Source: Vulcanimicrobiota bacterium
GTDB lineage: Bacteria > Vulcanimicrobiota > Vulcanimicrobiia > Vulcanimicrobiales > Vulcanimicrobiaceae
DNA length: 64,000 nucleotides
Assembly (NCBI GenBank): GCA_963735845.1
Contig: CAVTMN010000007.1
Span: forward strand, 197,014 to 261,013
Reading direction: 5' to 3'
Positions within the stretch are counted from its first letter, which is position 1. Every line of letters begins with the position of its first letter. The position numbers and the translations under genes were made by a program. The notes below the pieces were generated by a model, which saw only the letters and a program-made list of their open reading frames with translations, did not search any database and was not told the origin of the DNA. Shown here piece by piece: positions 25,373 through 46,079 of the stretch.

Positions 25373-27961
25373 TCACGAGGGAGCGGTTTGTGCGAAACCG
25401 GTACGATCGCGCCGCATCGCGTCTTGTGCCAACGTTTGCGCCAGCTCTCGCCGAACTTCGGCGAGATATGAGGCGTACGGTGCGAACCAGCTCCAGCCGG
25501 CCACGTGCGCCGGCGTGCGATCGCTCCAGCTTGCCAGCAGCCGTTCCACGCGCTGCCGTTGCGACTCGCCCAATATCCCCGCGCCGCGTACCGAGTGCAG
25601 GACGTTCTCGGTCTCGCGAACGTCGCTGCCGACGTGCTCCCCAAGCGCGTATCCGTTTCTCGCGTTTTGAATTGACTCGCGATCTCCGAGTTGCGCGCGC
25701 GTCCGCGAGACGCACATCTTCAAGGCGTTGACGGCGCCTTTTCGGTCGAGCGCCGGCCAAAGGGCGGCGGCCAGCTCTTCGTTGACCGTGCCGCTCTCGA
25801 AGAGGGAGAGCGCGGCAAGCAGTTCGAGGCCGCGATCGGAGACGTGAAGGATCTCCGAGCCGCGCCGGACGTGACCGTGGATGACGTCGACGAAGAGCCG
25901 GTCGTGGCGCGCTCGCAGCGGCGATCGCGCGACGCGCGCGGCGAGACCTTTAAAAATTCCGTAATCTTCCAGTTCCGGCGAATCTACGAGCAGCTCGATC
26001 GACGTTTGAAGCGGCGGCGATTCGATCGAAGCGGCAATCGTGCGCGCCTCGAGCAGCCGGCGGCGTTGCGGCGGAGCGAGCAGCGCCGCGCATACGCGGA
26101 TGACGACCCGCAGAAAGTCGTTCTCGCTCCCGTCGATACGCTCGATTGCGCGATCCATCAACGCGACGGCCCGATCTCCGTCGTAAGAGGTTAGCGCCTC
26201 TTGAAGGTCGGCGAATGCCGCAGACTCTATTGCGTCTCCGTCCCGCGCACCGCTGACGACGAGGATCTGGCGTGCCGCCGCGACGCGATCGTCATCGTCG
26301 CGGAACCATGCCGCCTGCGCCACTGCCCGCGCCGCCTCGACGATGCGCTCGCTAGGCCCGGTGCGCAGGGCCGATGCCAGGCGCTCTTCGGCGAGTTTGA
26401 GGAGATCGTCCCAGTTGCCGTGCGTCGTCGCTTTTGCCGCAGCGATCTGAGCGCGCTCCTCGTCAAAGCGTAGATGTCGCGCTTCGTAGATCCCGGCCGC
26501 CTCTTCGACGAAACGGTCGGCATCGATGAAGCGACCCTGCTTGGCGGCGACCACGGCTGCAGTCATCAAAGCGAGGCGCTGTTCTTCGGGCGTTTCGCCG
26601 GGTGATGCCAGCGCGGCCAGGTCGGCGAGCGTTGCGCGCGCCTCCGCGAGCCGGTCGAGCTCGCACGCAAGCATCGCCCGCCGCACGCCGAGACGCCGGT
26701 AGAGCGCCGGAGAGGCGTCGGGCGAGATCGCCTGTTGCAGCGCTGCGGCTTCTTGGTAGAGACGCGCGGCGTCGGCACTACGCTGCCGGTATTTGAGCGC
26801 CGCAATCCACAAGTTGGGACGCGTCGCCAGCGACGAAACCGGAATCTTGGCGAGGGCGTCGACTAATCGCGAGGACGGCTGCTGCAAGGTTTCGAGAGGC
26901 AGGCGATCGAGAATGCCGGCTGCGGCCTCGCGTTCGCCGGCGACGTTGTAAAGCTCCGCGGCTCGCAAGAAGTCACCCACGCGCTCGTTTCCGCGCGCCG
27001 CTCGCAGTACGTAATCGGCAAAGTCGCTACCGTGCCGGGCGCGCAGTGCCGGGTGCAGCAACGGATGTAACGTATACGTTCCGGATTCGTACGTGATGAA
27101 GCCGGGGAGGCGCAATAAACCTTCGATAACCGGCGAGGCGTGTGCGATGCCGCTCGCAACGGAGATGTCTTCGAGCGTTGCGTGCGGGATGGCCGCCGCG
27201 GCCAGCATCGTCGACGTCATCTCCGCGGTTAGCGCCGAGAGCACCTCGTTGACGAGATACTCGTGCAGATCGGTCGGTATGGTGCCGAGCCGGTCGAGCA
27301 GTCCGCCGAGGTCGGCTTCGTAATGCGCGATGCGTGCCAGCAACAGCAGTGCGATCGGCCACCCTTCGGCCAAACGGACGATGCGATCGATCGTCGGTTC
27401 TGCGAGATCGGTGCCCTGGAAGATGGCCGCCGCTTCTTCGGCGTCGAGCTGCAACTCTTCGCGCGACAGCGTGAGCACTTGATGCGGCTCCAAGTAACGC
27501 GCGACGTCGAGCGGCAGGGGCCGTCGCGAACTTACTAGCAGCACGCGCTCGGCCGGACGCGCAGCCAGGAGATCTCCGATGAGCGCAAGCACGCTGGGCT
27601 GCCCGGCGATAGTATCGGCGCTTTCGAGAATCAACAGCGCGCGCTCTTGACGGAGCTTCCAGAACTCGAGCAGCGCCCGACTCCAGGCGGCTTCGCCGGC
27701 TTCGGTCGCGTGCAGCGCCAATCGGGTGCGCGCGATGGCCTCTCCGCCGGGCGATTCGCCGGCGAGCGCCGCCATCAGACGTCCGGCGAAGTCGACGGTT
27801 CCGGCAAGCTCGGCGCAGTTGCAAATCGCGTGACGATCGAATCGGCGAGCGAAAAGCTCGGCGAAATCCGTCTTGCCGTAACCCGGCGGGGCGCAAAGAA
27901 GTACGAGGCGCGGTTCGGCTGCACCGAGGCGGGCCAGCAAGCGCCGGCGGGCGAGAATCAT
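25373..27961 (-). CDS. MalT-like STAND ATPase with C-terminal OmpR/SARP-type winged-helix plus BTAD-like module
   Basis: ATG 27961 overlaps the hypB stop (ATGA). Walker A is [11 protein letters not shown], and [13 protein letters not shown] is MalT-like. A long helical-repeat middle follows. The C-terminus ([25 protein letters not shown]...[22 protein letters not shown]) looks like a trans_reg_C/SARP wHTH. The 862 aa are intact. This is the distal part of the 995-aa track ORF. Confidence 0.72.
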
Positions 27962-28641
27962 CCAGCCGGAGCGAGCGATTTCGTGCGGATCATCTCCTCG
28001 AGTAGCGAGAACCACTCGTCCATCCCTGCTCCGGTTCGCGCCGAAAGCTCGAGAATCCGCGCCTCTGGATTGACTTGGCGGATGCTGTGCGATCGCTGCC
28101 GCGCGATCGTAGCCCACGGCCTCGGCGATGTCGATCTTAGTGATCGTCGCGACCTGCGAAGTATTGAACGCCAGCGGATATTTGAGCGGCTTGTCCTCGC
28201 CTTCGGTCACGGAAAAAAGCACGACGCGCAGGTCTTCACCGAGATCGTATTCGGCCGGACAGATCAGGTTGCCGACGTTCTCGATAAAGAGCACGTCGAA
28301 GCGGCGCGTCGATCCAATCGTCGAGTGCCTTCGGCAATCATGTCGGCGTCGAGGCGGCATTCGGCACCGGTGGTGATTTGACGCACGGCGGCGCCGTCGC
28401 GGCTCAAACGTATCGCGTCGTTGTCGGTGGCTTGATCGCCGACGAGCACGCCGACTTTATAGCGAGGTCCAAGCCGTTCCAGCGTGCGTTCGAGCAGCGT
28501 CGTTTTACCGGAGCCGGGGCTCGACAGCACGTTGACGACGAGCGTTCCGCTCGCAGCAAAGCGTTCCCGAAGTCGGTTTGCGATCGCGTCGTTCTTTACC
28601 ATGAGATTACGCGCGATAGCGATGACGCGCATCTGGTTCAT
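27958..28641 (-). CDS. hypB: Hydrogenase nickel-incorporation GTPase HypB; two frame breaks
   Basis: [43 protein letters not shown] / [42 protein letters not shown] / [26 protein letters not shown]. Breaks near ~28330 and ~28085. There is no His-rich or CxxCGC N-terminus. Confidence 0.9.
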
Positions 28642-37460: not shown

Positions 37461-37653
37461 AGGCTGCACGACCTGCGGCGACACTGCGTTGGCACTGCGG
37501 GTCCTCGAACGCGACGGCAACCGCGCGGTTTGCGCCGGCGCGGATGGTGGCCGGAGTGTCGTAGAGCTGGATTTTGTTCCCGACGCTACGACCGGCGACG
37601 TCGTACTCGTTCATTTTGGCGTTGCGATCGCGCGGGCACCACGGGAATCGTGA
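37444..37653 (+). CDS. Second HypC/HupF-family small protein (CxxC type)
   Basis: ..EGCTTCGDTALALRVLERDG..AVCAG..VELDFVPDATTGDVVLVHFGVAIA. The start is TTG 37444 or GTG 37402. Confidence 0.55.
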   Translation: MPNASEGCTTCGDTALALRVLERDGNRAVCAGADGGRSVVELDFVPDATTGDVVLVHFGVAIARAPRES

Positions 37654-37654
37654 G

Positions 37655-38767
37655 ATGAAGTTCGTCGACGAGTTTCGCGACCCGCAGCTCATTCGCAATG
37701 TTTCGCGCGAAATCGGCCGGCTGGCCGATTCCGATCGCCACTACCGCATCATGGAGGTCTGCGGCGGGCATACCCACGCTATTTACCGGCACGGCCTCAA
37801 GAATCTGCTGCCGCCCAACGTCGAACTGATTCACGGACCGGGATGTCCGGTCTGCGTCTTGCCGATGGGGCGCATCGACGACGGTCTGGCGATCGCCGAA
37901 CAGCGCGACGTAATCATGACCGCGTTCGGCGATATGATGCGCGTTCCCGGAACGCGGGGAACGCCGCTCGAGCTCAAGGCGCGCGGCGTGGATATCCGGA
38001 TGGTGTATTCGCCGCTGGACGCGCTGCGCATCGCTCAAAACACACCCGATAAACACGTCTTTTTCTTCGCCATCGGCTTCGAAACGACGGCACCGTCGAC
38101 GGCGTTGACGCTGGCACGCGCGAAGGCGCTGGGGATTCGCAACTTTTCCGTGTTCTCCAATCACGTCACGATCGTTCCGGCGATTCGCGCGATTTTGGAT
38201 TCGCCCGATATGCGTCTCGATGCGTTCGTCGGCCCGGGACACGTTTCGACGGTAACCGGATGCCGGCCGTACGAGTTCATCGCGCGCGACTACGGCAAGC
38301 CCGTCGTCATCTCGGGCTTCGAGCCGCTCGACATCCTCGAGTCGATCCTGATGATCTTGCGGCAGCTGCGCGATAAGGAGTCGCGCGTCGAGAATCAGTA
38401 TCGCCGCATCGTTCCCTGGGAAGGCAACTTGCCGGCGCTGGCGGCAATCGGCGAAACCTTCGAGCTGCGGCCGTATTTCGAGTGGCGCGGCTTAGGATTC
38501 ATCTCGCAGTCGGCGCTGAAAGTCTCCAAGGCCTACGCGCAGTGGGATTCGGAGGTGCAGTTCGAGGTGCCCGGCGTGCGCGTCACCGATCCGAAGGCGG
38601 CGCAGTGCGGCGAGGTGCTCAAAGGCGTGCTCAAGCCGCCGCAGTGCAAGCTCTTTGGAAAAGAGTGCAATCCCGAGCATCCCATCGGCGCGCTGATGGT
38701 CTCGAGCGAGGGTGCCTGCGCGGCCTACTATCGTTACGTGCACCTCAACGAGTCGGTGACGGCGTAG
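37655..38767 (+). CDS. hypD: Hydrogenase maturation protein HypD
   Basis: MKFVDEFRDP..IMEVCGGHTH..HGPGCPVCV..FFAIGFETTAP..GPGHVS..SGFEP. The 370 aa are intact. Confidence 0.93.
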   Translation: MKFVDEFRDPQLIRNVSREIGRLADSDRHYRIMEVCGGHTHAIYRHGLKNLLPPNVELIHGPGCPVCVLPMGRIDDGLAIAEQRDVIMTAFGDMMRVPGTRGTPLELKARGVDIRMVYSPLDALRIAQNTPDKHVFFFAIGFETTAPSTALTLARAKALGIRNFSVFSNHVTIVPAIRAILDSPDMRLDAFVGPGHVSTVTGCRPYEFIARDYGKPVVISGFEPLDILESILMILRQLRDKESRVENQYRRIVPWEGNLPALAAIGETFELRPYFEWRGLGFISQSALKVSKAYAQWDSEVQFEVPGVRVTDPKAAQCGEVLKGVLKPPQCKLFGKECNPEHPIGALMVSSEGACAAYYRYVHLNESVTA

Positions 38768-38779
38768 AGGTCCGCAGGC

Positions 38780-39829
38780 ATGGATACCATCGAACGCGCC
38801 GTGCCGCGGGTGCGTTTCGCCGACAGTCAAATCGAAATGGCGCACGGTGCCGGCGGCAAAGCCTCGCGGCGTTTGGTCGAAGGCCTTTTCGTTCCATTGC
38901 TCTCCAACCCAATTCTGGAGACGCTCTCCGACGCCGCCATCTCACATTTCAACGGCTCGCGGATTGCGACGACCGCCGACGCCTACGTCGTCAAGCCGCT
39001 GCGTTTCCCCGGTGGGTCGATCGGTGAGCTAGCCGTGAACGGAACGGTCAACGACTTGGCCGTCTCCGGTGCCAAGCCGCTCGGCCTCATGGCGGCGTTC
39101 ATTCTCGAGGCCGGCCTGACCGGCGACACGCTGCGAGCCGAGGTCGAAGCGATGGCGGCGGCGGCGGCGCGTGCCGAGGTTGCGATCGTCGGCGGTGACA
39201 CCAAGGTCGTCGAGCACGGAATGGCCGATGGAATGTACGTCACGACCTTCGGGTTCGGCGAAGTCGATGCGCGCGCACATCTCGGGCCGGCGCGAGTTCG
39301 CGAGGGCGATCGGGTGCTGCTCTCGGGCCCCATCGGCGATCACGGCATCACCATTCTGCTCGCGCGCGGCGAGCTCGATCTCGAAGCCGACTTGGCATCG
39401 GACACGCGCTCGGTCGCGCCATTCGTCGACGCGCTGCTCGATTCGGCCGGGGATGCGCTGCACTGGATGCGCGATCCGACGCGCGGCGGCGTCGCCACGG
39501 CACTCAACGAGCTGGTGCATGCGACCGAATTCGGTATAACGCTCTTCGAAGAAACGATTCCGCTGCGCGACGAAGTGCGCGGAGCCTGCGAGATTCTCGG
39601 CCTCGATCCGTTGCACATCGCCAACGAAGGACAGCTTCTTGCCGTTGTCGCGCCCGACCACGCCGATGCGGCGCTGGCAGCGATGCAGGCCGTACCGGGC
39701 GGCGAAGGTGCCGTCTGCATCGGTGAAGTGAGGTCGAAACCGGCGCGCGCGGTGCTGGCGGTGACGAGCTACGGTGGAAGCCGCATCATCGACATGCTCG
39801 TCGGTGACCCTCTTCCACGCATATGCTGA
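38780..39829 (+). CDS. hypE: Hydrogenase maturation protein HypE
   Basis: AIR-synthase-like fold sequence with the diagnostic C-terminal ..DPLPRIC*. The 349 aa are intact. Confidence 0.93.
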   Translation: MDTIERAVPRVRFADSQIEMAHGAGGKASRRLVEGLFVPLLSNPILETLSDAAISHFNGSRIATTADAYVVKPLRFPGGSIGELAVNGTVNDLAVSGAKPLGLMAAFILEAGLTGDTLRAEVEAMAAAAARAEVAIVGGDTKVVEHGMADGMYVTTFGFGEVDARAHLGPARVREGDRVLLSGPIGDHGITILLARGELDLEADLASDTRSVAPFVDALLDSAGDALHWMRDPTRGGVATALNELVHATEFGITLFEETIPLRDEVRGACEILGLDPLHIANEGQLLAVVAPDHADAALAAMQAVPGGEGAVCIGEVRSKPARAVLAVTSYGGSRIIDMLVGDPLPRIC

Positions 39830-41020
39830 CGCACGAACCGTCGCTGCGGAAACTCGAGCGATGGATGCGCACAGCGCTTCGAGGAACGCGATGCCGTCTC
39901 CGAGACGTTCTTCCCGCAGCAAGCGCGGCCGCTGGCTCTGGCCTGCCGGCAGACGTTCGAGCGGTTTCGCCGCGGCGGCCGTTTGCTGGCATTTGGAAGA
40001 GGCGCCTACGCGACCGACGCGCAGCACGTCTCGGTGGAGTTCGTTCACCCCGTCATCGTCGGAAAGCGCGCGCTGCCGGCGATGGATTTGAGCTTGGCTT
40101 TCGCGCCGTGGATCGACGCGATTCTCGATCCGAATGATATCGTGATGGGCTTCGGTCCGCCCGAAGGCGACCCCGAGGTTATGCGCGTGCTCGAGCGAGC
40201 GCACGACCGCGGCGCGCTCACCTTTGCGCTACCCGGAGAGAAGGCCGATTATGCCGTAGCGGCTCCCAGTACCGATCCGCACGTGCATCAAGAGATGATC
40301 GAGATTCTCTGTCACACGCTATACGAAACCGTGCACGTTTTTTTCGAGCACGACGAGATGGGACACGACGTCGGCGCGTCGAGCTTTCTCTATCCGTTTT
40401 TGGGCGAACGCGGCGGATCGCAGGATTCGCTGGTGGACGAAGTCGCCGCCTCAATCCTCATGAAGGCACAAGATGCGCGTCGTTTGCGCGGCGAGGTCGT
40501 CGCGAGCCAGGCCCCCGCGATGGCGCGGGCCGTAACGGCAATCGCCCGCGAGCTCCAGTCGGGCGGCAAGCTCATCCTCTTCGGTAACGGGGGCTCGGCA
40601 ACCGACGCGACGGATTGGGCGCTGGACTGCGTGATTCCCGAAGGAGACGTTCGTCCGATTCCGGCCGTTTCGCTGGCGCTCGAACCGGCCATCCTTACGG
40701 CCGTTGCCAACGACGTCGGCACCGAGGTCATCTTCCTGCGCCAGCTCGTCGCGCAAGCGCGTCCGCACGACGTGGCCATCGCGCTCTCGACCAGCGGCGG
40801 ATCGAAGAACGTCGTCGCGGCACTCGAAGAGGCGCGCAAACGCGAGATGCTCACCATCGCGCTGCTCGGATACGACGGCGGCGAGATCGTTCGCCGCGGG
40901 CTGGCCGACATTCCGATCGTCGTTCACAGCGATTACATCCCGCGGATTCAAGAAGTGCAGGGAAGCATCTATCACGTCATGCGCGAGGCGCTCGATAGGC
41001 TCGGCCGCGATGCCGCTTGA
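39823..41020 (+). CDS. Double SIS-domain (GmhA/sedoheptulose-7-P-isomerase-like) protein; one frame break
   Basis: ATG 39823 overlaps the hypE stop. The break near ~39875 leads into ..RFRRGGRLLAFGRGAYATDAQHVSVEFVHPVIVGKRALPA.. and a second SIS unit ..GGKLILFGNGGSATDATDWALD..ALSTSGGSKNV. Confidence 0.7.
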
Positions 41021-41249
41021 GCTTTATGGGACGCGTTCGTGTCCCTATACCGCCGAACTGCGCTCCGAACTGCAGTGGGACGGCAAGCCGTTCGTCGAGT
41101 ACGACGTCGAAGCCGACGCCGGCGCGCTCCGGCGTCTCTTCGCGCTCGTCAGCGGCTCGGTCAGCGTGCCGGTGCTCGTCGAAGACGGGCAGGTCATACA
41201 GGTCGGCTGGAACGGTCAAGGCTGTTACGTAGCCGCCGCACGGACGTGA
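41010..41249 (+). CDS. Glutaredoxin/NrdH-fold small protein (CPYT motif)
   Basis: MPLELYGTRSCPYTAELRSEL..FVEYDVEAD..VPVLVEDGQVIQVGWNGQGCYV. It overlaps the SIS gene by 11 nt and is GTGA-coupled to hypF. Confidence 0.6.
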   Translation: MPLELYGTRSCPYTAELRSELQWDGKPFVEYDVEADAGALRRLFALVSGSVSVPVLVEDGQVIQVGWNGQGCYVAAART

Positions 41250-43484
41250 TCGAGGCCCGGCACGTACGCATCACCGGGATCGTGCAGGGCGTCGGCTTCC
41301 GCCCGTTCGTCTACCGGCTCGCCCGCGCGCACGGCCTGCACGGCTGGGTGCTCAACGCCGAGACCGGCGTCGAGATACACGTCGAAGGGGCACCATCAGC
41401 GCTGCCAGGTTTTCTCGGTGCAATCGAATCACAGGCGCCCGCCGCGTCGCGCATCGCCTCGTTCGACATCGTTCCGACGCTGGTGTCGGGATTCGACGAC
41501 TTCACCATTCGCGAGAGCGTGCGAACGAGCCGCCCGACGGTGCGCGTCTCGCCGGATTTGCCGGTCTGCGAGGATTGCTTGCGCGAAATGGGCGACCCGA
41601 ACGACCGCCGCTTCGGTTACCCGTACATAAACTGCACCAACTGCGGGCCGCGCTACAGCATCATTCTAGGTTTGCCGTACGACCGTCCGCAGACGACGAT
41701 GCGCGACTGGCCGATGTGCGAGCGCTGTGCCGCCGAATATCACGATCCGCTCGACCGCCGCTTTCACGCGCAGCCCGTCGCGTGTCCCGACTGCGGGCCA
41801 TCGTACTATTTGACGGTCGACGGCGTCACGGAGCGCGGGGACGCGGCGGTTTCTCGCGCCGCAGCGCTGCTGCGCGAGGGTGCGATCGTCGCGATCAAAG
41901 GTCTGGGCGGCTACCACTTGGCTTGCGACGCAACGCAGCCCGAGGCGGTCGCGCGCGCTGCGCGAACGAAAGTATCGAAAAGAGCGGCCCTTTGCGGTGA
42001 TGACGCGCGATTTAGAATCGGCCGCAGCATTGGTGGACCTCTCGCCGGAACACGAACGCCTGCTGCAATCCATGCAGCGGCCGATCGTGCTGGCTCCGGC
42101 AAAGGTTGAGTTAGAGGGCGTCGCGCCGGAGAATCGCGACTACGGCGTCATGCTGCCGTACACGCCGCTGCATCATTTGCTCTTCCGGCACGGCGCGCCC
42201 AGCGTGCTGGTGATGACGAGCGCGAACCGCTCCAGCGAACCGATCGCGTACGCCGATGACGACGCGTTCGAGCGGCTCTCCGGAATCGCCGACGCGTTTT
42301 TGACCGGCGAGCGCGAGATCGCGCGCCGCGTCGACGACTCGGTGGCAGCGGTCGGTCCGTACGGCCCGGTCGTGCTCCGTCACGCGCGCGGAGGCGCGCC
42401 GGCTGCGATCGCCCGGCTACCGACGCGCCGTCCGACGCTTTGCACGGGCGCCGATTTGAAGAACGCGGTTACGCTGGTCGTCGACGGGCAAGCATTTACG
42501 AGCCAGCATATCGGCGATCTCGATCACTACGGATCGTTCGCGGCGTTCAAAGAAACGATCGCCGATCTCTGCACGATGTACGACGTGCCGATGGGCGAGC
42601 TTCTGGTCGTCCACGACGCGCATCCGGAATATGCATCGACCCAGTACGCTCGCACGCTTCCGGGCGAACATCGAGCCGTACAGCATCATCGCGCGCACGT
42701 CGCCAGCGTGCTGGTCGAACGCGAGGCGTTCGATACGCGCGTCGCCGGGATCGCTTTCGACGGAACTGGTTACGGCGACGACGGAACGATTTGGGGTGGA
42801 GAGATCTTCACCGGCAGCTTGCGCGAGGGCCTAACGCGTGCCGTTTGGCTGCGTGAAGCCAAGCTACCCGGCGGCGACGCCGCCGCGCGCTATCCGGTGC
42901 AAGCGGCGGCCGGCTTTTTGAGCGAGCTCGACGATTTGCCCGATCTTACCGCCGCGCCTTTCGACTTCCCGGAACGTTACACCAAAGCGAAGCGGTTAAC
43001 CGAGAGCGGCATCCGTACGTTTACCACGACGTCGGTCGGCCGGCTCTTCGACACGGTGGCCGCGCTGCTGGGCTTCACGCGTCCGATCACGTTCGAAGGG
43101 CAGGCGGCGATGTGGGTCGAGCACCTCGCCTGGTCGGACGCGAGCGAAGATAGCTATCCTTTCCCCGTCGTCGCTGCGCGGCTGGACTTTCGCCCGCTGC
43201 TGGCGGCCGTGGTCGCCGATCGCCGGCGCGGCCGCGACGTGCGCGAGATCGCGGGCGCCTTTCATCGCGCGCTTGCGGACGCGATCGCGAGCGCCGTCGA
43301 GATGCTCGAACCAAAGCAGATCGTTGCGTCGGGCGGCGTCTTCCAGAACGCACTGCTGGTCGAACTGCTCGCCCAGCGTTTCGGCGACCGGCTTTGGATC
43401 AACCAAAAGGTTCCCGCCAACGACGGCGGCATCAGCCTCGGCCAGGCGGGCATCGCCGCCGTTTACTCAGGCACGACCGCTTAG
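41246..43484 (+). CDS. hypF: Carbamoyltransferase HypF; one frame break
   Basis: Acylphosphatase domain (RITGIVQGVGFRPFVYRLA), two Zn-finger pairs (CEDCLREM..INCTNCGPRYS; CERCAAEY..ACPDCGP), YrdC-like (IKGLGGYHLACD) and Kae1-like C-terminal half. The break is near ~41950. Confidence 0.9.
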
Positions 43485-44038
43485 GGTGAAGCCGGCGTCC
43501 AATCCGTTCCGTTCGAGTACTCGATGCGCGTGACACGATAGGTCGCCATACGCGCTGAGAGGAGCGGGAAGGCCGCGACGCTCTGTTTCAACCCCGTGCA
43601 GTTCTCGTCGTAACCGCGATTCGTGCTGCTCTGCCAGGTCGACAGGTCTTTCCATCCATGGATCTCGACGCTCGGAGAGAAGGTGCCGCGGCGATCGAGG
43701 GTCAGCGTGGCGACCTGCTCTCCGGCGTGGTTCATCAGCAGGAACTCAAATAGCACGCGAGTCGCCGTTAGCGAGCCTTCGTTCTTGAACGAGATGCAGG
43801 CATGAGCGCCGCGTCCGTCGCGCATCACGGCCGCCCAGCCGTTGAAAACGGCGATGCCGCCGGGCGGCGTACCACCCAGCGTCGGCGTGCCGAAATGCAG
43901 CAGGCGATACGGATTCGGTGTCGCCGACGGGGTGGCCGTCGGCTTGGGTGAAGACGTCGAAAGTTGAGCCGTCGCCGGCGCGGCCGCGCCGATCGCCACG
44001 GCGGCAATGGCGAAAAGCCAAACGGCATTCCTTTTCAT
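43481..44038 (-). CDS. Secreted hypothetical protein
   Basis: ATG 44038 (MKRNAVWLFAIAAVAIGAAAPATA) gives a signal peptide, a Pro/Thr linker and a ~130-aa domain. Confidence 0.5.
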   Translation of the reverse strand: MKRNAVWLFAIAAVAIGAAAPATAQLSTSSPKPTATPSATPNPYRLLHFGTPTLGGTPPGGIAVFNGWAAVMRDGRGAHACISFKNEGSLTATRVLFEFLLMNHAGEQVATLTLDRRGTFSPSVEIHGWKDLSTWQSSTNRGYDENCTGLKQSVAAFPLLSARMATYRVTRIEYSNGTDWTPASP

Positions 44039-44113
44039 GGTAAAGCCGTTCTCGATGGAATTCACCGCTCCTCGATAGAATATCGCGACCATGACGCGAA
44101 GCAGGAGGACGTA

Positions 44114-44689
44114 ATGTCAGGCATTCCGTGGGAGACCGAGTATAAGGCGGCGCTCGAGCGCGCCGCAAAGGAGCGGAAGTTCGTCTTTCTGGACGTCTTC
44201 AACCCTGGTTGAGGGGGATGCCAAGCGCTGGATACCGTGACGTATCCTCAAACCGAAGTTGCCGAGACGATCCTCGCCCATAGCATTCCGGTTCAGTTCG
44301 ACAACTCGAAGAAAGAGAACAATCTCTTCCTGCACGGCATCCATCACATCTGGACGCCGGACGTTCGAATTCTGAATCACGACGGGTACGAGCTCTATCG
44401 TTGGGATGGATTTCTACCGCCGTCCGAGTTTATCGCACGCACGCTCTGCGGGTTCGCGCTGGCGTACCTGCGGCTCAAACGATTCGAACAGGCCGAAGCC
44501 GTATACGTCGACGTTCTCAAACGTTTCTCGACCACGTATGCGGCGCCCGAGGCGCAATACTATCTCGGCGTGACCCGGTATCGCCGCGATCCCGACAGCG
44601 ACGAGTTGCTGAATCAGTGGGCGAACCTGCGTTCGCGCTATCCGGAGAGCGAGTACCGGGTCAAGCAGTCGTTCAAGGATTTTCCGTAG
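44114..44689 (+). CDS. Thioredoxin-fold protein with in-frame UGA at the CxxC position (candidate selenoprotein, U-G-G-C)
   Basis: AGGAGG lies 5 nt upstream of ATG 44114. Track ORFs 43964..44212 and 44237..44689 are in the same frame and are separated only by TGA at 44210-44212. Read-through gives ..KERKFVFLDVFNPG-U-GGCQALDTVTYPQ..., the WCxxC position of Thioredoxin_7/DUF255-like proteins. Confidence 0.55.
44230..44247 (+). other. Candidate SECIS-like hairpin
   Basis: GGATAC-CGTGAC-GTATCC (6-bp perfect stem, 6-nt loop) starts 17 nt after the in-frame UGA. Confidence 0.3.
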
Positions 44690-44716: not shown

Positions 44717-44971
44717 TTACGTGCCTTCCTGCACCTCGATCAGGTGGTCGGCGACCAGCCCGTGCGCTTCGCGGTGTACCGCGTTGGCGGCTTCTCTCGA
44801 CGGCGCTTTGACGAGGCAAAAGACCTTGCCCGTTCCCTCGTCAAACCAGTAGCGCATGTACTCGACGCCGTGCTTCTCTTGAACCTTGAGGTCGGCTTCG
44901 TGTGCGTGGGCCACGCCGTCGGCGGTCAAACCCTCGACGTGATCGTGGACGTCCATGTAAAGTGGCACCAA
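44717..44971 (-). CDS. DUF4242 / SCO4226-like small protein (family with a reported Ni-binding member)
   Basis: MVPLYMDVHDHVEGLTADGVAHAHEADLKVQEKHGVEYMRYWFDEGTGKVFCLVKAPSREAANAVHREAHGLVADHLIEV. The 84 aa are intact. Confidence 0.55.
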   Translation of the reverse strand: MVPLYMDVHDHVEGLTADGVAHAHEADLKVQEKHGVEYMRYWFDEGTGKVFCLVKAPSREAANAVHREAHGLVADHLIEVQEGT

Positions 44972-45040: not shown

Positions 45041-46079
45041 ATGACCGGTCGTCCCGAGTACTATGCTAATCGTCCTAGGAGGCCTGGCGGTCTAGTGGAT
45101 CCGCTCTCGAGCATGCTGCGCGCCGTGCGCCTTACCGGTGCGGTCTTCTTTGAGATCGACGCGGCGGATCCGTGGGCCGCCGAAACGCCGCCCGGCGGCT
45201 CGATTGTGGATGCGGTTATGCCGGGTTCGGGACACTTGATTCCCTATCACGTGCTGACCTACGGGAAGTGCTGGGTCTGGCCCAGCGGCGGTCCGCCGAT
45301 TCAACTCTCGGCCGGCGACATCGTGGTCTTTCCGCACGGCGACGCTCACGTCGTCGCCAGCGAACCCGGCATGCAAACCGTGCCCGACTTGGACCGCTTT
45401 CGCGCGCCTCGCGACCGTCCGTTGCCGTTTCACCTGCGCATGGGCAGAGCGTCGGGCGAGTCCAGCGCGCACATGGTCTGCGGTTATCTCGGCTGCGATC
45501 GCCTCCCGTTCAATCCGCTGCTCGACTCGCTGCCGCGCGTGATTCACATCGGCGATCGCGACGGCGGCGCGCTGGCGGCGGCCTTTGCGCTGGCGCGAGA
45601 AGAGGCAAAGCACGACCGGATCGGCGGCGAGACGGTGCTCGGGCGCCTTCAGCGAGCTGATGTTCGTGCAGGTCGTGCGCCGTTATTTGGAGACGCTGCC
45701 GCCCGAAGAGACGAACTGGCTCTCGGGTCTGCGCGACCCGGTCGTAGGCGCCGCGCTGACCGCCCTGCACGGTGATCCGTCGCGCGAATGGAGCTTGAAT
45801 CTGCTGGCGCAGGAGGTCGGCGTCTCGCGCTCGCGGCTGGCGGAGCGTTTCACGCAACTCATGGGAGAGTCACCGATGCAGTATCTACTTCATTGGCGCA
45901 TGCATCTCGCCGCCAACCGCTTGCGGGACGGCTCCGAAACCGTCGCTGCGGTTGCCGATGCGGCCGGCTACGAATCGGAAGTCGCCTTCAGCCGGGCGTT
46001 CAAAAAGATCGTCGGCATGCCGCCGACGCAGTGGCGAAAGGAGGGTTCGCCCGGCAGGCCAAAACAAGCGAGGGCTTAG
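45041..46079 (+). CDS. AraC-family regulator with N-terminal cupin domain; one frame break
   Basis: DPLSSMLRAVRLTGAVFFEIDA... is the cupin part. After the break near ~45640 comes the HTH part WSLNLLAQEVGVSRSRLAERFTQLMGESPMQYLLHWRM..AGYESEVAFSRAFKK. GTG 45095 is an alternative start. Confidence 0.75.

Follow-up and report, generated by a model that had tools for sequence, protein, structure and literature searches.

A thioredoxin-fold gene of Eremiobacterota with a probable selenocysteine codon belongs to a known selenoprotein family

The stretch of DNA analysed here (the window) comprises 64,000 nucleotides (nt) of a Vulcanimicrobiota bacterium genome (GenBank assembly GCA_963735845.1, contig CAVTMN010000007.1, positions 197,014 to 261,013), and at 44114-44689 it holds what appears to be one gene with an in-frame TGA. 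An AGGAGG at 44103-44108 is followed by a 5-nt spacer and ATG 44114, and in the frame that runs from this ATG to the TAG at 44687-44689 the TGA at 44210-44212 is the sole interruption. The two open reading frames (ORFs) of the region, 43964..44212 and 44237..44689, share that frame. Just eight sense codons (GGCQALDT) separate the TGA from GTG 44237, and the gap between the two ORFs is only apparent, since an ORF list begins anew at the first GTG after a stop. The window translation is MSGIPWETEYKAALERAAKERKFVFLDVFNPG-(TGA codon)-GGCQALDTVTYPQ... The original prediction, made from the sequence alone, described this arrangement and a 6-bp hairpin, GGATAC/GTATCC at 44230-44247, beginning 17 nt past the UGA; every one of these coordinates was confirmed on re-reading. 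Taken together, the evidence suggests, with a probability of about 0.9, that UGA 44210-44212 is a selenocysteine (Sec) codon served by a selenocysteine insertion sequence (SECIS) hairpin in a thioredoxin-fold protein with a U-x-x-C motif. Direct support comes from the conserved TGA, the coding constraint that flanks it, the Sec/Cys column in homologues, the constrained hairpin, the fold and the family membership. The features of the locus are as follows.

44103-44108, + strand: Shine-Dalgarno-like AGGAGG, 5 nt before the ATG, from direct reading.
44114-44689, + strand: complete predicted selenoprotein gene, 191 codons including the putative Sec33, stop TAG 44687-44689.
44129-44437, + strand: thioredoxin-fold domain of the DsbD-gamma/Thioredoxin_7 type, residues ~6-108.
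44207-44245, + strand: near-frozen synonymous stretch, from codon -1 (GGT) to codon +11 (TAT).
44210-44212, + strand: UGA predicted to be read as Sec33, first position of the predicted U-G-G-C redox motif, from conservation and the homologue column.
44214-44249, + strand: competing hairpin B, GGGGAUGC at 44214-44221 paired with GUAUCCUC at 44242-44249.
44219-44221, + strand: TGC, Cys36, the presumed resolving Cys of U-x-x-C; the C36 column is nearly invariant in the family alignment A2.
44230-44247, + strand: candidate bacterial SECIS hairpin, arms 44230-44235 and 44242-44247, apical loop CGUGAC 44236-44241.
44237-44239, + strand: GTG, internal Val42, taken by gene callers as the start of a 150-aa protein (annotation artefact).
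44351-44359, + strand: cis-Pro motif W80-T81-P82; P82 is invariant in alignment A2.
44438-44686, + strand: C-terminal helical domain resembling tetratricopeptide repeats (TPR), YbgF/CpoB/BamD-like, residues ~109-191.

The TGA is conserved, and the codons on both sides of it appear to evolve as coding sequence. In a scan of genomes taken one per GTDB species, 61 loci were located; almost all carry the label Eremiobacterota/Vulcanimicrobiota, and a few are in metagenome-assembled genomes (MAGs) under other labels. Among the carriers are the complete Eremiobacterota chromosomes OY969421.1 (L016), OY970223.1 (L033), OY970311.1 (L035) and OY969805.1 (L040). The TGA occupies the same codon in all 61, inside FNP[G/H]-TGA-GGCQALD, and tblastn matched residues 1-191 in a single frame in 61 genomes. 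A start codon (ATG or GTG) stands at the position used in the window in 31 of the 61 loci, and 30 have a Shine-Dalgarno-like motif 4-16 nt upstream. The TGA was also found in 21 more metagenome loci, and distant members in other lineages keep it, including the isolate Desulfocastanea catecholica. Over the whole family the tally at the DNA level is 94 of 102 loci with TGA and 8 with a Cys codon (TGC/TGT), the latter forming one Nitrospirota-like Cys subfamily. Constraint was measured on 57 intact genes with pairwise nucleotide identities of 61-99%. The 27 codons before the TGA have entropies of 0.56/0.46/1.20 over the three codon positions, against 0.54/0.34/1.24 downstream, so that both sides are dominated by position 3, and none of the 57 sequences has a stop codon within those 27 codons. 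The original prediction would have failed if homologues lacked the N-terminal beta-alpha unit; on the contrary, the 32 N-terminal residues are conserved in frame across the 61 loci. The neighbouring genes for HypE, a SIS-domain protein and an aspartyl protease terminate at TGA. The codon is thus an ordinary stop for these genes, and the code is not reassigned.

These data also bear on the notion that the TGA arose through an error in sequencing or assembly, or through recent mutation of TGC or TGT in a pseudogene. There are indel-type frame breaks elsewhere in the window (a split hypF, and an extra C at 45650 in an AraC-type regulator), and many of the related MAGs belong to the MFD (Microflora Danica) series, which we take to be long-read assemblies. 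The TGA, however, is a substitution-type feature and not an indel. The 94 loci that carry it span different samples, assemblers and phyla, and the sequence on either side of it is under purifying selection. Run ERR12035936 was also assembled independently, and over 1549 nt this assembly (L122) matches the window at 100% identity, TGA included. An error or a pseudogene is effectively refuted as an explanation, and the chance that it still applies is negligible.

Homologues hold either Sec (as TGA) or Cys at the position in question, a result in favour of the original prediction. A database search with the protein in which U is replaced by C returned 345 relatives. The 120 matches listed among these have 142-160 aa, mostly 150, and all begin with the GTG after the TGA. 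Most come from Eremiobacterota, and they bear the name "tetratricopeptide repeat protein" or one like it. An exhaustive HMMER search with the part of the protein after the TGA gave 544 representative clusters. Among the best 150 of these, 70 are N-truncated and begin with M(D/G)(A/T)VTYP, 19 are full-length with CGGC or CxGC, a few have lost this motif, and one has W at the column, where the gene caller translated the TGA as Trp. All eight N-truncated forms inspected in DNA (L066, L110, L112, L114, L115/L116, L117, L118 and L119, the last being the D. catecholica isolate) have an in-frame TGA behind a conserved beta-alpha unit. The cluster with W also has TGA in its DNA (L064). In alignment A2 the TGA column corresponds to the first Cys of C-x-G-C, and the second Cys, the W-T-P motif with its cis-proline and a G-(F/Y)-L-P-P motif are near-invariant. 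Homologues in which Cys replaces Sec thus exist, and the family provides a Sec/Cys pair. A metagenome scan with the alignment of the Cys subfamily yielded Cys-form loci; one with the single Cys-form query P0128 gave no DNA match. The 90%-identity cluster of P0128 mixes 190-aa CGGC forms with 148-aa forms, which could reflect very recent switches between Sec and Cys or mere alternative start calls. The Trp call comes from an AT-rich organism (L064/L065, 117-698; FNPG-W-GGC, protein P0144), and presumably the gene caller applied genetic code 4.

The full-length product has the domains of a thioredoxin-fold protein followed by a TPR-like domain. With U replaced by C, the 191 residues pass the Pfam threshold for Thioredoxin_7 (PF13899; 31.5 bits against 27, E 1.9e-7, residues 6-86). 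The original placement of the UGA at the first Cys of a thioredoxin-fold CxxC is supported. The signals in the C-terminal half are weaker in Pfam (TPR_16, 5e-5, residues 114-158) and include a YbgF match (TIGR02795, 2.5e-5). A family profile compared with the Protein Data Bank (PDB) matches 2kuc (1.3e-16) and DsbD-gamma (4e-15), with their CxxC aligned with U-G-G-C, and its C-terminal half matches the TPR domains of YbgF, CpoB and BamD (2xev YbgF, 6.8e-13). The full-length Cys homologue P0288 (38% identical, CGGC) served as a stand-in for structure. Its AlphaFold2 (AF2) model has a predicted local distance difference test score (pLDDT) of 95.3 and a predicted template modelling score (pTM) of 0.90. 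C38-G-G-C41 lies at the N-terminus of helix 39-48, and helices at 106-194 follow the thioredoxin fold. On its own, the thioredoxin domain of the model gives a good superposition with DsbD-gamma, DsbH and 2kuc (TM ~0.7-0.8 on target, root-mean-square deviation (rmsd) 2-3 A). A redox motif at the N-terminus of the active-site helix and a conserved cis-proline are thus found together, as in Thioredoxin_7/DsbD-gamma folds. The window protein has no signal peptide or N-terminal hydrophobic segment, suggesting that it is cytoplasmic.

The continuity of this fold bears on the view that the TGA is a true stop, by which the locus would encode a 32-residue peptide and a separate 150-residue TPR protein beginning at GTG 44237. 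All gene callers annotate the locus in this way, and the GTG is invariant in the 57 genes; it is invariant because it sits in the loop of the hairpin, and no Shine-Dalgarno-like motif lies ahead of it at a usable distance. The 27 codons before the TGA and the eight between it and the GTG are conserved as protein in the same frame, however, and the Cys-form homologues are continuous across the junction. Without strand beta1 and the N-terminal helix, which a product of 150 aa would not contain, the thioredoxin fold would be broken. Termination at this codon is very improbable.

The codons around and after the UGA are constrained as nucleotides, in agreement with a SECIS in the coding sequence. 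Normalised synonymous entropy among the 57 genes is 0.12 in codons -1 to +11 and 0.72 elsewhere (Mann-Whitney p=1.7e-8), and this stretch is the lowest of 174 twelve-codon sliding windows. The codons CTG GAT ACC GTG ACG TAT show no third-position change at all, compared with ~1.5 bits in codons for invariant residues elsewhere, and the same codons vary synonymously in the ordinary manner in the Cys subfamily at comparable divergence. The frozen stretch coincides with the hairpin. In the window GGATAC (44230-44235) and GTATCC (44242-44247) are perfectly complementary around the loop CGTGAC. Over 30 distinct sequences the hairpin is paired in 97.8% of cells, and all one-sided changes lead to G-U pairs. 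Two pairs carry compensatory changes in L118 (G-C to C-G and A-U to G-C), and in Desulfocastanea the pair 23-36 was independently compensated from A-U to G-C and a seventh pair is present. None of 500 shuffles reached the covariation score. Three members (L112, L114 and L064) are without this hairpin; 10-11 nt past the UGA they have instead another 6-bp hairpin, perfectly paired and with a GG loop. Its form in L064 is AGAGCU-GGAC-AGCUCU. The proposal of a SECIS-like hairpin at 44230-44247 is thus borne out by strong nucleotide-level constraint.

The hairpin agrees clearly with the published bacterial SECIS (bSECIS) model on three of four criteria. As given in the legend of Fig. 2 of a review (PMC13188914), that model has a stem of 4-16 bp, a loop of 3-9 nt, a spacing of 16-37 nt between UGA and loop, and an energy cut-off of -7.5. 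In the window hairpin the stem has 6 bp and the loop 6 nt, G and U occupy loop positions 2 and 3, and the spacing is 23 nt, all of which agree with that legend. Unlike in the bSECIS consensus, no lower stem is conserved.

Several results weigh against the interpretation of the UGA as a Sec codon with a SECIS. The energy of the hairpin is -6.0 kcal/mol alone and -7.2 in context, and the -7.5 kcal/mol cut-off of the legend is passed only by adding flanking pairs that are not conserved. The 71-nt region folds no better than shuffled sequences (z=0.15), which puts the hairpin taken alone at chance level; its significance comes only from the comparison across genomes, and the compensatory changes stem from only two distant sequences. 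Rfam gave no match, whether the threshold was gathering or permissive. For the sequence of the window itself, hairpin B is the thermodynamically preferred structure (RNAfold, pair probability ~0.95; RNAalifold also). As a functional element hairpin B was rejected: its middle pair is broken in 19 of the 30 distinct sequences, its covariation is no better than that of shuffles, and its 5' arm begins only 1-4 nt past the UGA. That stretch lies inside the ribosome during UGA decoding. Hairpin B is probably a competitor and not a functional element. The machinery for Sec decoding was sought in 619 kb, made up of the window and the flanks of loci up to L118, and no selA, selB, selD or tRNA-Sec was found within it. 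Finally, Sec insertion in the published family is itself graded "predicted with high confidence" and not experimentally verified (PMC13188914).

The individual searches for the machinery gave the same result. E. coli SelA, SelB and SelD had no tblastn match in the window or the loci, and ARAGORN, run on the window and on 60 loci, called no tRNA-Sec. An ORF with an AIRS domain at 38780-39829 was considered as SelD and is HypE (TIGR02124, 386 bits). Two tRNA-like elements were noted in other loci. One, called tRNA-Leu(cag) by ARAGORN (L056, 2902-2995), is unusually long at 94 nt and lies directly upstream of the gene; the other (L035, 5910-6001) could not be assigned by ARAGORN. The anticodon is not UCA in either. 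The literature searched contains no link between Eremiobacterota and selenocysteine or selenoproteins.

The lack of such a link in the literature searched, together with the negative search of the 619 kb, would fit readthrough of the UGA without Sec-tRNA(Sec). A near-cognate Trp or Cys tRNA or a suppressor tRNA would then decode the codon, and the hairpin would just stimulate readthrough. The codon, however, coincides with that of the nucleophilic Cys in a CxxC motif, and the redox site would be lost if Trp were inserted there. In known Sec-users such as Geobacter and Syntrophus the homologues have been published as Sec proteins, and the hairpin has the G-U loop signature and the spacing of a bacterial SECIS as described in the figure legend. 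Readthrough of this kind is very improbable, and decoding as Sec is much preferred.

We infer Sec insertion, contact between SelB and the hairpin, redox chemistry and a role for the TPR domain in the following way. Positions 44114-44689 would be one gene for a 191-residue cytoplasmic selenoprotein, with UGA 44210-44212 decoded as selenocysteine during translation. The 18-nt hairpin GGAUAC-CGUGAC-GUAUCC, 17 nt downstream, would serve as a bacterial SECIS and bring SelB, GTP and Sec-tRNA(Sec) to the ribosome while the UGA is in the A site. In the folded protein Sec33, at the N-terminus of the active-site helix, would be the attacking nucleophile and Cys36 would resolve, giving a selenenylsulfide, with Pro82 as the cis-proline. 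The YbgF-like TPR domain most likely binds a protein partner or substrate.

The genes around the predicted selenoprotein gene vary among genomes. A hydrogenase-maturation cluster (hypD, hypE, a SIS-domain protein and hypF, 37574-43484) lies just upstream, and a nickel-responsive SCO4226-like gene (44717-44971) lies just downstream. This adjacency is common only to the five closest genomes, and no neighbour occurs in more than 12 of 62 loci, so a functional link to the hyp or SCO4226-like genes was rejected. The commonest neighbour, in 12 of the 62 Eremiobacterota loci, is a Rieske-type [2Fe-2S]-like ORF (CTHDGGPL...CPRHG; e.g. L026, 706-1836), which lies upstream on the - strand in those loci and is too infrequent to suggest a functional partnership. 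On the - strand at 43481-44092, a divergent 203-aa ORF combines a hydrophobic segment at its N-terminus with a Pro/Thr/Ala-rich linker. Pfam gives no match for this ORF, and it is conserved in the closest relatives only.

Frame errors are present in other genes of the window. The hypF gene (41039-43484) is split into overlapping ORFs in different frames, one with the acylphosphatase and HypF zinc fingers (41039..42109) and one with the YrdC and Kae1-like domains (41880..43484). The split looks like an indel-type frame error, and the hypF call on the public contig is also just a 470-aa C-terminal piece. The AraC-type regulator at 45041-46079 has the extra C at 45650 relative to the 281-kb contig_68138 of ENA ERZ25039517, which is otherwise identical over 2453 nt; with this base, a Cupin_6/AraC regulator of 327 aa becomes two ORFs. 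Both versions have the TGA of the selenoprotein candidate. A 995-aa ORF on the - strand (25373-28360) joins a HypB fragment (residues 20-91) to a MalT-like regulator and is probably a frame or assembly artefact fusing two genes.

The novelty of these results lies in distribution and annotation. The selenoprotein family is already known, having been first reported in Geobacter about twenty years ago, and gene callers routinely truncate such genes. New are the presence of the gene throughout Eremiobacterota, with the Sec form predicted in every copy examined, and the widespread misannotation of the family as a 150-aa "tetratricopeptide repeat protein". Hundreds of public protein clusters of ~150 aa represent the C-terminal four-fifths of a selenoprotein, and all the Eremiobacterota copies observed are among them. 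Truncated members are named "tetratricopeptide repeat protein", "TolA-binding protein", "BamD", "thioredoxin family protein" or "hypothetical". The cultured isolate Desulfocastanea catecholica, from a Sec-rich lineage, is also misannotated (L119, 10001-10453, BAAHYZ010000002.1). The gene can be used as a simple marker of UGA-as-Sec decoding in Eremiobacterota, a statement not found in the literature searched, and in the strongly constrained 18-nt hairpin there is a clear case from nature of a SECIS that conserved codons contain. General knowledge of selenoproteins is unchanged by the finding. The thioredoxin and TPR architecture, which the historical name of the family does not convey, is of some further interest.

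The closest known system is the "thiol:disulfide interchange protein" family of selenoproteins, to which the window gene is assigned on sequence similarity. The family is said to go back to Kryukov and Gladyshev in 2004. Its selenoprotein sequences are given by Zhang, Romero and Gladyshev (2006; PMC1794560, supplement 4), and at that time the Sec form was listed from three organisms of deltaproteobacterial lineages. The members from G. metallireducens (...RLVLLDFFNPGUIGCKQMDAVAYP...WTPT...) and G. uraniireducens (...TILLDFFNPGUIGCKQMDAVTYP...) are in this set (PMC1794560). In BLASTP the window protein is 35% identical to the G. uraniireducens protein over 178 aa (E=8e-37) and 31% identical to the G. 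metallireducens protein over 184 aa (E=7e-31), and in both cases U is aligned with the TGA. The Geobacter-type proteins, like the window protein, are 186-191 aa long, have no signal peptide and carry an FNPG-U-x-G-C motif, and they have in common with it (M/L)D(A/T)V(T/A)YP, WTP, GF(L/Y)PP, APEA.Y..GV.R(Y/F) and YP(D/E)S. The differences are U-G-G-C in the window in place of U-I-G-C in Geobacter, and a host in the phylum Eremiobacterota in place of the deltaproteobacterial lineages of the 2006 listing. A new selenoprotein family is ruled out by the Geobacter sequences of supplement 4. The original proposal of a U-G-G-C thioredoxin-like selenoprotein is therefore supported by the sequence-level tests, and only its novelty as a family falls, since the Geobacter FNPG-U-xGC proteins precede it. 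Table 1 of the 2026 review lists the family with PF13098, UxxC and WP_011366075.1, and has no Thioredoxin_7 or TPR entry (PMC13188914). In the literature searched, no mention of a TPR domain in this family was found. The published name implies a periplasmic Dsb protein, whereas the sequence and the model indicate a cytoplasmic thioredoxin and TPR protein.

Other selenoproteins with a related active site are more distant. VPGUxxT (NF041382/NF041383) and the C-terminal domain of TsoB (NF045694) are of the Thioredoxin_7 type, with Sec after a P-G or N-P-x turn. The window protein resembles them only weakly (E=1.3e-4 and 2.6e-6; at best 8.7e-11 and 2.6e-14 for family members), and membership is rejected for VPGUxxT type 2 (NF041383; 21.8 bits against a cut-off of 275) and for TsoB (NF045694; 25.8 bits against 805). 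Those models have 287 and 572 positions, other architectures, and UxxT and not UxxC. Trx7/PDZ membership was likewise rejected on hidden Markov model (HMM) scores. The window protein scores below the curated cut-off of every NCBIfam model, and E-values for the members of alignment A2 are weak. The N-terminal domain matches the DsbD-gamma, Thioredoxin_7 and DsbH folds (1uc7, 2fwe, 2kuc, 2ju5) with profile E-values of ~1e-16 to 1e-15. Unlike the window protein, proteins of the DsbD-gamma/DsbH type have Cys, have no TPR domain and are either periplasmic or tethered to a membrane, and DsbD itself is a relative in fold only (NCBIfam DsbD, 23.5 bits against a cut-off of 330).

The CnoX/YbbN chaperedoxin (3qou, 3qdn) is the only solved architecture in which a cytoplasmic thioredoxin domain is followed by a TPR domain. 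It is the top full-length Foldseek match of the P0288 model (E=4e-7 to 6e-7), and the global superposition is poor (TMq 0.41, rmsd 11.5-11.8 A). CnoX has ~284 aa, a larger TPR domain, and an SxxC site rather than CxxC or UxxC. A speculative and rather unlikely extension is that the family is misnamed: its members would be cytoplasmic and Sec-dependent, either chaperedoxins like CnoX or protein-disulfide reductases, with a TPR domain for holding clients, and they would have been overlooked in Eremiobacterota, where the family is Sec-only. If so, Eremiobacterota, a soil phylum, would have a phylum-wide selenium requirement, and the SECIS hairpin would be unusually ancient, with a sequence that is identical in different phyla because the conserved D-T-V-T-Y-P codons contain it. 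Membership in CnoX/YbbN was rejected, the PDB profile matches being to separate thioredoxin and YbgF/BamD domains and not to YbbN. The resemblance to CnoX/YbbN is best regarded as an analogy of architecture and not as membership.

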